DNA of 64,000 bases from an uncultured Haloferula sp. (GTDB taxonomy: Bacteria > Verrucomicrobiota > Verrucomicrobiia > Verrucomicrobiales > Akkermansiaceae), in NCBI GenBank assembly GCA_965652295.1, contig CBFGTS010000014.1, forward strand, positions 45,794-109,793. The letters run 5' to 3'. The notes beneath the pieces are model-generated. The model did no database searches. It saw only the letters and a program-made list of their open reading frames with translations, and was not told the origin of the DNA. Below, one piece after another: positions 9,084 through 13,586 of this stretch. The number at the start of each line of letters is the position of its first letter. The stretch's first letter is position 1. Both the position numbers and the translations under genes were made by a program.

Positions 9084-9525
9084 CCACAGGATCTCTGCCT
9101 CAAGGATAAACAGCTCCTCACCTCTCCCACCCCCCTGGGGTCACCCCCTCATCCGTTCTCGCCACAAGGCTTCGATGGCTCACAGGTGCAGAAGCATTCT
9201 TCTGGATACCGAGGCACTGAAAAAGACCGAGACCACCGGGTCCGGAAACCTCTCATCCTCCCTTTCTCCGTGCAGCTCCGTTTCTCGGTGATGGAAAAAG
9301 GCAACTTGGACCTCGGACGCCTGCATGAGGCCTCGGCCCTCGAAGATTCTACATGAACCCCTCGATCCGCGGCCACACCTCATCCGCATCCCGGCACGCT
9401 CGCTCCCCGCCTTGATCCCCTGCGACGATAGTTAGTGCCCGACTCCGCGGCACCCTCGACTCACCACCGGCGGAAGACTTCCAATATCTCCCCCAGCTTC
9501 CGCCCCCCGAAGCACACCTCCACGT

Positions 9526-9645
9526 CAGCCGAAAATTCTCGAACCACTCCAGCACCAGCAAAAAACCGGATCTATCTTGATCCGACAATCCACGAAACTC
9601 CGCAAGATCCTTTCTCCAGCACCAACGCGACTTCGAAGCGCGCAT
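9526..9645 (-). pseudogene. intI: 5' remnant (about 40 codons) of a probable integron integrase
   Basis: MRASKSRWCWRKDLAEFRGLSDQDRSGFLLVLEWFENFRL resembles, from recollection, the N-terminal extension of verrucomicrobial integron integrases; divergent from attI and cassette array in canonical integron geometry; no tyrosine-recombinase catalytic motifs remain. Confidence 0.55.
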
Positions 9646-9946: not shown

Positions 9947-9987
9947 GATATCACCTCCGGAGACACTACGAATAAAAACTGTTCGCG
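9947..9987 (+). other. Putative attI site (core GTTCGCG at 9981-9987)
   Basis: A-rich stretch followed by G/TTCGCG, 15 bp before the first cassette ATG; exact reverse complement of the R'' box CGCGAAC of the first attC; no attC hairpin upstream. Confidence 0.65.
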
Positions 9988-10579: not shown

Positions 10580-10705
10580 CGCGAACAAGACGTGGGTGAG
10601 CAACGGCGCTGGCCGCTTCTTCTCGGAGTCGTTGGGACGTTTCACGCTTCCCTCCCTTCGTCGGCGTGCGGCTCCCGCGCCGTGCCACCACATTTAACGT
10701 TCGAC
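10580..10705 (+). other. attC site 1 (126 bp)
   Basis: R'' CGCGAAC, arm GTGGGTGAGCAACGGCGC pairing with GCGCCGTGCCACCAC with extrahelical bases, R' GTTCGAC. Confidence 0.85.
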
Positions 10706-10714
10706 CAAAACTAC

Positions 10715-11188
10715 ATGACTAAACGGAAAGAAATTTTACCCACCTGGATCAGGTTCTCCGCTTGGATATTTCTAATATTCGCGATCACCCCATTGGTCTT
10801 TCTGCTAGGGCTCACTGGAAAGATGAACGTGAGCATGACAGTTTTCGGCCTCGAGTATTCAGGATACACATCTCTTCACCCCGTTGCGATTTGGATTACG
10901 ATTATTCTTTCGATGGCAGCGACCGTATCTTACGGCATTTTATGGGGTAAGGATTGGGCGGTCGATTCGGCCATCGTCTATACCATCCTAGCTCTCGCGA
11001 CAAATTGCTTTGCGGTGGTATTTCGACTCACGGGAAACGAGATATATATCCCACTTGAGCCGCTGTTTCTGATTCCATTTTTAGTGTCGCTGATCCGTCG
11101 CCGAGACAGATGGAAGCGCTATCCAGAAATCGAAGCGAAAAAGTCAGATGGCGAACAAGATAAGATGAGAAGGCAGGGAGGGCCATGA
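10715..11188 (+). CDS. Integron cassette 2: hypothetical integral membrane protein (about 4 TM helices)
   Basis: ATG 9 bp after R' of attC1; AT-rich; four hydrophobic segments; frame runs through the R'' box and now stops inside the IS. Confidence 0.75.
   Translation: MTKRKEILPTWIRFSAWIFLIFAITPLVFLLGLTGKMNVSMTVFGLEYSGYTSLHPVAIWITIILSMAATVSYGILWGKDWAVDSAIVYTILALATNCFAVVFRLTGNEIYIPLEPLFLIPFLVSLIRRRDRWKRYPEIEAKKSDGEQDKMRRQGGP
11150..11160 (+). other. Interrupted attC site 2 (R'' box and spacer only)
   Basis: GGCGAACAAGA matches the attC1 start CGCGAACAAGA; 6/7 complementary to the GTTCGAC that opens this cassette; IS110 sequence follows. Confidence 0.65.
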
Positions 11189-12111
11189 GTGGCCCCATGG
11201 TGTATTCTACCCGTTGCCATGAGAACGAACTCATCTACGACAACCATAGGAATCGACCTCGGCGACAGGAAGCACTCGCTTTGCGTGCTCGCGGGTGATG
11301 GAAAATCCTGACGGAGACCACCATCGCCAACACGCGGGAAGCAATGTCTCGCTTCTCGAAGGAATGCCCTGGCGCTTTGGTCGTGATGGAAATGGGAATG
11401 CAAAGTCCTTGGATCAGCCGCTTTTTCACGGATCTTGGTCATCGTGTGCTGGTAGCCAATCCCCGCAAGGTCCGCGCGATCTACCAAAACGATCGGAAGT
11501 GCGATCGCAAGGATGCGGCGATGCTCGCCAAGCTGGCCCGGGCCGACGAAACCCTGCTGGCTCCGATCGAGCACGGTACCGAGCAAGCACAGCTCGACCT
11601 CCTTCAGGTCAAGCTACGGGACAATCTGGTGCGCCAGCGGGTCGATGTGATTTGATCTCGCCGCCCCACGGCTCGCCCCCTGCGGGGCACGTCGCTTCGC
11701 TCCTGTCCATCCCGCTCCGCGGTATTCCGCGGTGCGCTTCACCCTCAAGAGCCTGGGTATCCGCCTGGGCTCGCCGAATACGAACGGCTTCGCCCGCCAC
11801 GCACGGCGCGAGCTTACGGAAGGAAACGCCGGGATTCTCGGCGTTGATTGAGCCGTCGCTGATGGTCATTGAGGCCATGACGGCTCAGATCAAGAAGCTC
11901 GACGGCGCGATCGCCGAACTCGCCGCAGAGTCTTACCCCGAGACGGGTTTCTTACCCAGATCGCTGGCATCGGCCCGATTACCTCGCTGACATTCATCCT
12001 GACCATCGGTGACCCGGAGCGCTTTCGACGACCGCGAGACATTGGAGCTTATCTCGGACTGGTGCCCAAGTGCCCAAGCGCGACCAGTCCGGCGACACCG
12101 ACAAGCAGATG
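11161..12111 (+). mobile_element. IS110-family element (DEDD recombinase pseudogene from ATG 11219), 3' truncated
   Basis: Motifs IGIDLGDRKH, VMEMG, VANPRKVRAI, KCDRKDA, GIGPITS, GAYLGLVPK, QSGD; several frameshifts, a 73-bp insertion and an 8-bp duplication. Confidence 0.9.
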
Positions 12112-12363
12112 AGCGAGCAGTCGCCCTTGGTGACCGAGCGCAGTAGAGCCAGGAGGAAGCCGGCGGCGCTGAATTTGTGGGAATACCTGAGGATGAGGCC
12201 TGATTTTCTTGCGATGGCGTCGAGATCTGAGAGGCTCAGGGAGAAGTTGGCACCGAACATGCCGATTTTGCCGGAGCCCCCTGCAGGGCAAGCTTTTTCT
12301 CAACCATTCCACCATTCACAATGCTGACTATCAGTGACTTGCGTCGCTAGGTTTACGCAAATG
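12112..12363 (-). mobile_element. IS4-like element left end with transposase N-terminal fragment
   Basis: Minus-strand end CATTTGCGTAAAC; peptide LDAIARKSGLILRYSHKFSAAGFLLALL resembles IS4-family N-termini; abrupt junction with IS110. Confidence 0.55.
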
Positions 12364-12464
12364 ACCCCTGACCCGCTTCGAGTTGGAGTACTCATGGCGC
12401 TCCCTCCTTTCCACCACTGCGATCACCGCACCCGATCAGGGGTGGCTGCGCTCTGACATTAGTG
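12364..12464 (+). other. Partial, degenerate attC (right part)
   Basis: ACCCCTGA pairs with TCAGGGGT; starts like attC3 (CCTGACCCGCT.CGAGT.GGA); ends TGACATTAG where attC3 has TGACGTTAG; 7 bp before the FRG ATG. Confidence 0.7.
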
Positions 12465-12471
12465 CAAGCAA

Positions 12472-13185
12472 ATGGACGCGATTACTTCAGTTTCTCAACT
12501 ACTCGGATTTGCCTCTGGCAGCTACTTCGCAGAGTCACGCGGACGCTGGGTATTTCGTGGCCATTCAGACCGTCACTATACCCTGGTCCCCTCAGTAGGG
12601 AGAGGCTCCCACTGTTCACGAACACGAGTGGAACACGAGCGCAGCCTATTCGATATTTTCTGTAGAGAAGCACGCGGATACATCGGTGGATTTCCCGAGA
12701 ATCCTTGGGAACAGCTTTCAGTCGCCCAGCACCATGGGCTGCCGACACGGCTGCTTGATTGGACACACAATCCTTTGGCTGCGCTCTACTTTGCGATTGA
12801 GTCCAACTCGGATAGGGATGGCGAGTTCTTCGCGCTCCATGCGCCCCGGAATGCCTCGCTGACCAAGAGTGAGAGGGACCCATTCGAGATTCGTCAATCT
12901 GTGAAGTATTATCCGAATCTTGTCTCTCCTCGAATCAAGGCTCAGGAAGGCCTATTCGTGGTTTGCTCACAGCCCGAATCTCCATTGGACGGAGTCCTTC
13001 GTTCCGACTGGAGGCTTGAGCGCTACATTGTTCCGGCCGAAGCGAAAGAGCGCCTTCGGTATGATCTGTTTCGGGTCGGTATTCACGCTTCATCGCTGTT
13101 CCCCGATGTTGATGGTTTAGCTTCGCGTCTGAAGTGGCAGCATACAGTAACAAGCCCTAGCAAGTCGCAGCACCCAACCGCCTGA
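12472..13185 (+). CDS. Integron cassette 3: FRG-domain protein
   Basis: WVFRGH, AQHHGLPTRLLDWT.NPL.ALYFA, RIKAQEGLF, SLFPDVDG motifs. Confidence 0.92.
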   Translation: MDAITSVSQLLGFASGSYFAESRGRWVFRGHSDRHYTLVPSVGRGSHCSRTRVEHERSLFDIFCREARGYIGGFPENPWEQLSVAQHHGLPTRLLDWTHNPLAALYFAIESNSDRDGEFFALHAPRNASLTKSERDPFEIRQSVKYYPNLVSPRIKAQEGLFVVCSQPESPLDGVLRSDWRLERYIVPAEAKERLRYDLFRVGIHASSLFPDVDGLASRLKWQHTVTSPSKSQHPTA

Positions 13186-13280
13186 CCCGCTCCGAGTCGG
13201 ATTTTCACCGTGATTTCAAACCTCACCCCACAGTCAACGCGCGGCTGCCGTCAGGCGGTTGGTGTGCTATGACGTTAGCG
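13155..13280 (+). other. attC site 3 (126 bp, degenerate R'')
   Basis: CCCTAGC-AAGTC-GCAGCACCCAACCGCCTGAC pairs with GTCAGGCGGTTGGTGTGC, then R' GTTAGCG. Confidence 0.8.
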
Positions 13281-13289
13281 GAAGAATTT

Positions 13290-13360
13290 ATGCACTCAGC
13301 GCCGCCATCGCCGAACGATCCGGAGGACACAGAAGATGCCTTTCTATCCATGACCGGCAT
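13290..13360 (+). pseudogene. 5' stub of a fourth cassette gene, truncated by the IS30 fragment
   Basis: ATG 9 bp after R' of attC3 (MHSAPPSPNDPEDTEDAFLSMTG), then a switch to IS30 sequence. Confidence 0.45.
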
Positions 13361-13586
13361 GCCCCGCTCCCAGGAGTGATGCGGAGTGGCGAAGTAGAAC
13401 GGCACGTCGGTGATCTCCTCGACGGTCAGGTAGTCGTGGAACTCGCTGCCGTTGTCCGCGGTGATCGTCTTGTAGCTGCCGAGATGGCGAGCCATCAGCT
13501 TCAGGATGGAGCGGGTGGTCTCCGCCATCGTCACCGCGCGGATCTTGCCCATCTCCAAATAACCGCTCCGGCGTTCCACGAGGGTC
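13361..13586 (-). mobile_element. IS30-family transposase internal fragment
   Basis: TLVERRSGY, TITADNGSEF, FYFATPHHSWERG motifs; no termini visible. Confidence 0.88.

Follow-up and report, generated by a model that had tools for sequence, protein, structure and literature searches.

A 64,000-nt stretch of DNA from an uncultured Haloferula sp. (the window) contains an IS1111-type insertion sequence (IS) of which only the left two-thirds survive, in decayed form; it lies at an AG core beside the R'' box of an integron attC site. This copy is a dead relic and ordinary in itself. Its intact relatives carry a predicted guide RNA 3' of the transposase gene, and sister branches have tandem copies of one half of the RNA's target loop. 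From the comparison of sequences we infer, with good confidence, that the element was RNA-guided to attC, and more tentatively that the sister-branch arms may be alternatives to one another; expression, guiding, use of both arms and the order of events all form part of that inference. The tandem half-loop guide arms are new at the level of this clade, and the lineage is a new form of attC-seeking IS1111.

An IS1111-type remnant in a short cassette array

The window locus is a short cassette array in which cassette 1 starts at position 9981; the gene of cassette 2 starts at 10715 and runs into attC2 at 11150. The following features were assigned.

10580..10705, + strand: attC1, intact and empty; R'' CGCGAAC at 10580, R' GTTCGAC at 10699; read from sequence
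11150..11159, + strand: left part of attC2, consisting of R'' GGCGAAC, A and the AG core (insertion point); junction identical in L031 and L032 of genome G103 and in most relatives
11158..11218, + strand: IS left end with a 7-bp terminal extension (11158-11164), a 12-bp subterminal inverted repeat (11165-11176) and a short leader; in intact copies the repeat has a partner at the right end; 7+3 rule (PMC11187229)
11219..12114, + strand: truncated pseudogene of an IS1111-type DEDD recombinase with frameshifts, covering the first ~271 of 351 codons; Pfam; 93-94% DNA identity to L031
11653..11725, + strand: 73-bp small mobile element in the transposase gene, bringing an in-frame stop; absent from L031, at the same base in L032
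12110..12363, - strand: start of an IS4-type (DDE_Tnp_1) element, comprising its left end and the first codons of its gene; joined to the IS1111 remnant through a TGAGC microhomology
12364..12464, + strand: right part of an attC that has survived, with a degenerate R' (ATTAGTG at 12458); from alignment with attC4 and other attC arms
13155..13280, + strand: attC4, intact and empty, of the same family as the 12364-12464 remnant; R'' box degenerate; fold z -3.16

The R'' box of attC1 is complementary to the cassette start GTTCGCG at 9981, and the DNA fold z-score of this site is unremarkable (-0.15). The region upstream of the array resembles sequence adjoining two other arrays. In the genome, no integrase scored above the TIGR02249 cut-off; the sole clear intI is split and falls short of it. 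An Rfam search gave no match at the locus. At 9349-9645 there is a putative integrase fragment, unmatched in Pfam. Immediately after the attC remnant lies an FRG-domain cassette gene (PF08867; 12472-13185), and attC4 is followed by an integrase-core (rve) transposase fragment on the minus strand (13223-13579; weak Pfam E of 0.063).

At the left junction, GGCGAACAAG (11150-11159) is followed by the remnant of an IS110-family (DEDD) transposase. A sequence-only reading of this DNA had placed such a recombinase inside an attC site, and in substance it was right: PF01548 and PF02371 match pieces of the gene, and relatives occupy the same attC base. After GGCGAACA come AG, ATAAG, the 12-bp repeat at 11165 and the ATG at 11219, and the position of the element in attC2 can be written as R''-A|AG. 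The left end is short, as had been proposed, but its start maps to the AG core at 11158-11159, 61 bp ahead of the ATG. Both attC1 and attC2 had been read as beginning GGCGAAC-AAGA. GGCGAAC is indeed present in attC2, but attC1 begins CGCGAAC (10580), and the likeness of AAGA to attC1 is coincidental because its last A (11160) belongs to the IS. The motifs D, E, D, D and S(G) are all readable, though spread over different reading frames. The AG at both ends of the element was considered as a target duplication; we rejected this, as AG fits the 7+3 end rule as the core of a bridge recombinase.

A search of the genome yielded no further copy of the element. The window copy is the sole one, and its ends were therefore defined from relatives. 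AACAAG occurs 1238 times on the two strands of the 4.37-Mb genome. The left junction ends in AACA in 70 of 85 distinct junctions of relatives with this repeat, so that the window junction is not a matter of chance.

Decay of the window copy and its fusion to an IS4-type element

Compared with the intact copy L031, the window gene is frameshifted by three 1-bp indels, near 11305, 11840 and 11944. It also has a duplication of 8 bp at 12062, and an insert of 73 bp at 11653-11725 brings in a stop. The gene ends at 12110-12114, where a TGAGC microhomology joins the IS1111 remnant to the left end of an IS4-type element. The first reading had correctly taken the right end of the IS as lost; it had overlooked the pseudogene state of the recombinase gene and its fusion. 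The RNA region of the window copy is deleted, and the guide considered below was borrowed from a relative.

The right guide of the G103 copies pairs at 8 of 9 positions with the right half of attC4 in the window, and the arm at 12364-12464 belongs to the attC4 family, which argues that both insertion sequences had entered attC2 and that the stretch between them was deleted. The L' arm of the remnant implies a lost L'' that fits the right guide of the intact relative. The arm at 12364-12464 is likely the remainder of attC2. On this account, the 73-bp element and the frameshifts would have killed the transposase gene, the IS4-type element would have entered the same attC ~13 bp further on, and a deletion at the microhomology would have removed everything between the two elements, presumably in this order. 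It is possible that this deletion also took intervening cassettes.

The 73-bp element has matches in 61 of 250 family genomes. Joint inheritance of the insert by the window copy and L032 is not supported, since the window copy is as far from L031 as it is from L032 (50 and 51 differences of 875), and these two differ from each other by only 11. More generally, elements of 70-75 bp without terminal repeats are inserted at short AT-T sites (window, L032, L015, L247, L150, L127, L108 and L279-L306). Two fixed spots in the transposase gene of this IS clade recurrently carry such an element, in one copy twice.

Two further partial copies of the IS4-type element are present in the genome of the window. 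A full-length relative (L309) has a PF01609 match and a 10-bp target duplication in an attC. The five closest IS4-type copies (three in this genome, including G000 C9 and C30; L308; L309) all abut an attC arm just inside L'', which more distant relatives mostly do not. This element is apparently attC-seeking too. In the window, three unrelated mobile elements are stacked at one integron locus.

Intact relatives and their target sites

Relatives of the IS1111-type remnant were gathered from genome and metagenome searches. The two copies in genome G103, L031 (intact, 351 aa, protein P0121) and L032, are 93-94% identical to the window copy and lie in the attC sites of different cassettes, both at GCCGAACA|AG. 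Both end with ...CTGCCTTCTCAT-GGA|AG and have the predicted right repeat. Several expectations of the sequence-only reading held in the intact relatives. A right-end inverted repeat complementary to ATGAGAAGGCAG is present, in a subterminal position. The organisation is IS1111-like, with a short left end and a long 3' non-coding region that contains target-matching segments, as expected if the guide RNA is encoded downstream. The flanks, which had been predicted to be shared and to continue into the attC L'' arm, rejoin to attC R''-AAG-L''. The proposed verrucomicrobial attC-targeting lineage also agrees with the hosts, which are mostly verrucomicrobial among the matches listed in one search (80 of 582 relatives). 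Viral contigs gave two distant matches only.

Rejoining was carried out for 33 copies of at least 60% identity with enough flank. Of these, 20 pass a scripted L-box/R' attC test and two more are attC by eye; five (G085) lie on the other (bottom) strand of attC, three are in partial attC sites and three have no recognisable attC. Further out in the clade the target varies: it is AACC|AG at R'' in Opitutae, and in other distant branches a site on the bottom strand near L' or a sequence that is not an attC.

Some sites deviate from the common pattern. The five identical bottom-strand copies of G085 (L033-L036) lie inside attC, though most such attC sites carry the canonical R''-AAG site. In four of the five copies the G085 right guide matches at 7-8 of 9 positions, provided that a 1-base slip is allowed behind the core. 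Two distant relatives in Anaerolineales records (L143 and L148) are inserted just before the GTTAG of an apparent attC R' box. In G015, sixteen left ends of the clade were matched; of the 15 with flanks inspected, almost every one lies behind AACA, and the majority are truncated. This pattern suggests repeated invasion and decay of a large cassette array.

The predicted guide RNA covaries with the target site

The 3' non-coding regions of the relatives align into two internal loops, and compensatory changes were seen in 10 of 17 predicted RNA pairs (29 sequences). The 5' strand of the first (target) loop is the reverse complement of the 9 variable bases right of the core, and its 3' strand copies the bases left of the core, that is, the conserved end of R'' (GAACA-AG). 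IS1111 seekRNAs have the same guide order (PMC11187229). The second (donor) loop matches the joined ends of the element (ATGGAAG); its guide equals the last 7 bases of the element in 64 of the 65 elements parsed (of 83), variants included.

Pairing was compared with that in permutations, which, here and below, ignore kinship and give inflated statistics: among 64 elements, the right guide paired on average at 5.26 of 9 positions versus 3.64 in permutations (maximum of 2000, 4.23), and left-guide identity averaged 4.61 of 6 versus 2.71. Within the AACA subclade, right-guide pairing was 5.74 versus 4.43 +/- 0.24 in permutations (0 of 5000). These data make it likely that the window element's own 3' bridge (seek) RNA, now deleted, guided its insertion beside the R'' box; the lineage would retune its right guide to the attC family of its host. 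Dozens of natural guide/target pairs are now at hand from which to read rules for IS1111 bridge RNAs: a 9-nt right guide, a left guide of ~6 nt, an AG core and an occasional 1-base slip.

L002 and its relatives have a conserved, left-target-like ATGAAACAA motif ~25 nt upstream of the target loop, where extra arms occur. This motif may mark the 5' end of the RNA or a duplication point.

Tandem guide arms in sister branches

In 17 of 34 guide RNAs with an AACA left guide, the 5' strand of the target loop, and this strand only, is present in two or three tandem copies. Such RNAs have a single 3' strand (one left guide) and different right guides. The count derives from a parser that flagged 20 of 35 distinct RNAs with this left guide; L088 and L096 were removed, and L097 and L102 were merged. 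The extra arms in L088 and L096 were rejected because they lie more than 110 nt upstream and have no inner stem. L108, which the parser missed, is also two-armed. Among 39 elements with a different left guide, the parser flagged none as multi-arm, though for 11 of these it parsed no module. A permissive pattern search of 401 class genomes for tandem arms gave apparent chance matches, which were discarded.

A tree of 57 proteins (L094 and L192 mislabelled; L004, L097, L105, L127 and L194 absent) requires at least five changes of the multi-arm trait. The nearest relatives of the window copy fall in a single-arm clade; the extra arms therefore belong to sister branches rather than to the window copy.

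Either 5'-strand arm could join the one 3' strand to complete the target loop, which would give the RNA alternative targets. The RNAs would then be multi-address bridge RNAs, in which two or three interchangeable right-guide arms cover the variable L'', the shared left guide rests on R'', and older arms form a repertoire for the attC sites of other hosts. We hold this reading tentatively and give it a chance just short of even. Between tandem arms, the stems are 85% identical and the guides 50% (17 comparisons). For 14 two-arm RNAs, pairing with the site was 6.07 versus 4.51 in permutations for the distal arm and 6.39 versus 4.61 for the proximal arm, both values beating all 20000 permutations. 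A clear winner was the distal arm in five RNAs (202 of 20000) and the proximal arm in six (13 of 20000). Six of the 20 flagged RNAs had been dropped from this test: L088 and L096 as false, L102 as a duplicate, L127 for its three arms, L192 for a 10-nt register and L093 for a non-attC flank.

Alternatively, the RNA guides the element to attC but the upstream arms are left over from tandem duplication. In this case the arm beside the 3' strand would be the sole working one, for example because the RNA is trimmed, and distal matches would reflect half-match insertion, by the left guide only, into attC families that suited an older guide. We regard this as quite plausible, at somewhat below an even chance. 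According to the available part of PMC11187229, IS1111 seekRNAs arise by processing of a longer form, and half-match insertion has been reported for IS621 (10.64898/2026.08.31.748434, available part). In addition, one two-arm element is present in six complete copies, all of which fit the proximal arm (8-9 of 9) and not the distal one. The genome concerned (G578) hardly tests the distal arm, however, because distal-type sites are scarce there (2 partial matches versus 14 empty proximal-type sites). Two further observations speak against relic arms. The distal stems are still complementary to the 3' strand while the guides diverge. Moreover, L003, L049 and L085 (73-91% identical) have a common distal guide and different proximal guides, and each of their three different sites fits the distal arm better (distal/proximal 7.5/5.5, 6/4.5 and 7.5/3.5, respectively). 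A point against the reading of alternative arms comes from folding predictions: all 17 two-arm rows favour the distal arm, by 1.4-16 kcal/mol, a modelled preference that does not predict the frequent proximal matches.

If both arms work, one RNA would address several targets by swapping half a loop. Guides could then be re-tuned without loss of the old target, which suggests a compact design for multiplexed bridge RNAs.

Guide RNA versus structure in the choice of attC

Both G103 sites pair with their own right guide at only 5-5.5 of 9 positions, so the right guide may be loose. Weak matches of this kind in several copies, together with sites that fit only with a 1-base slip (G085, L089 and L131), would be compatible with a choice of attC mainly by structure, either as folded single-stranded attC or as a target stem-loop read by protein, the RNA giving only the AACA-AG match. 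There is a precedent in ISPpu10, for which a target stem-loop is described as a specificity determinant (10.64898/2026.03.19.712850, available part). Against this, the covariation of right guide and right flank holds even when attC sites are compared with one another, and relatives whose guides differ occupy non-attC targets to which their own guides are matched. We consider structure-led choice unlikely and retain guiding by RNA.

Relation to known elements

The lineage has the hallmarks of the IS110 family. PF01548 and PF02371 are found in the window pieces and in intact P0121, together with D-E-D-D and the serine; P0121 passes NF033542, and the catalytic residues are invariant in alignment A1, except for the serine at 90% or more. 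Elements of the IS1111 group have subterminal inverted repeats of 11-13 bp located 7 bp and 3 bp from the ends (PMC11187229), and L031, L032 and most relatives have a 12-bp repeat with 7+3 offsets. The 3' non-coding region is 430 bp in the G103 copies and about 230-660 bp in relatives; it is deleted in the window copy. As in bridge or seek RNAs, guide segments of the relatives match both strands of target and donor and covary with them.

Known IS1111-attC members (ISPst6, ISKpn4, ISPa21 and ISPa25; PMC11187229 and PMC3001079) share with this lineage the IS1111 organisation, a guide RNA 3' of the transposase and a constant insertion point close to the 5' end of attC. Those members insert antisense to the array (PMC3001079), whereas in the window, as in R''-site relatives, the transposase is encoded on the strand that also carries the cassettes. 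The lineage further differs from them in its distant protein, its verrucomicrobial hosts, its several attC positions and the tandem right-guide arms in many members.

The best plasmid protein in PLSDB, a collection in which we take ISKpn4 and ISPa21 to be present, was at most 34.3% identical over its length. ISKpn4 and ISPa25 begin with DLAK, while ISAcp5 and ISCARN52 share the GIDLGD start of P0121 (PMC11187229, supplementary file 6 FASTA). By eye, and from motifs only, P0121 also shares GPFGPDT with ISAcp5, which is listed as an IS1111-family element (PMC11187229). ISAcp5 is 24.5-25.8% identical to ISPst6, ISKpn4 and ISPa21. It differs from the present elements by long non-coding regions at both ends, and no attC target is reported for ISAcp5 or ISCARN52 in the available part of PMC11187229.

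Orientation and motifs suggest that the lineage lies outside the known IS1111-attC group; we kept it apart because of its sense orientation and because its sequence points, indirectly, to the ISAcp5/ISCARN52 branch. That it is instead a divergent member of that group which spread to Verrucomicrobia is very improbable: family organisation and the attC region near the 5' end are the same, but orientation, the low identity of the PLSDB proteins, the DLAK and GIDLGD starts and the distance of ISAcp5 from ISPst6, ISKpn4 and ISPa21 all speak against it. The lineage likely reached attC independently, and it adds a sense-oriented branch to the attC-seeking IS1111 elements. Literature searches returned no verrucomicrobial attC-seeking IS1111 and no tandem half-loop guides; bioRxiv supplements (86 bridge-RNA models, 2026 language-model preprint) could contain them.

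IS621 and ISCro4 (PMC11208160, available part) resemble these elements in their DEDD and serine catalytic set, two-loop guide RNA and dinucleotide core, and are distant in sequence (PDB matches, E of 2e-12 to 5e-12). In contrast to IS621 and ISCro4, the elements described here have the RNA 3' rather than 5', the top-strand-pairing guide first, as in IS1111 seekRNAs, an AG core and long subterminal repeats.
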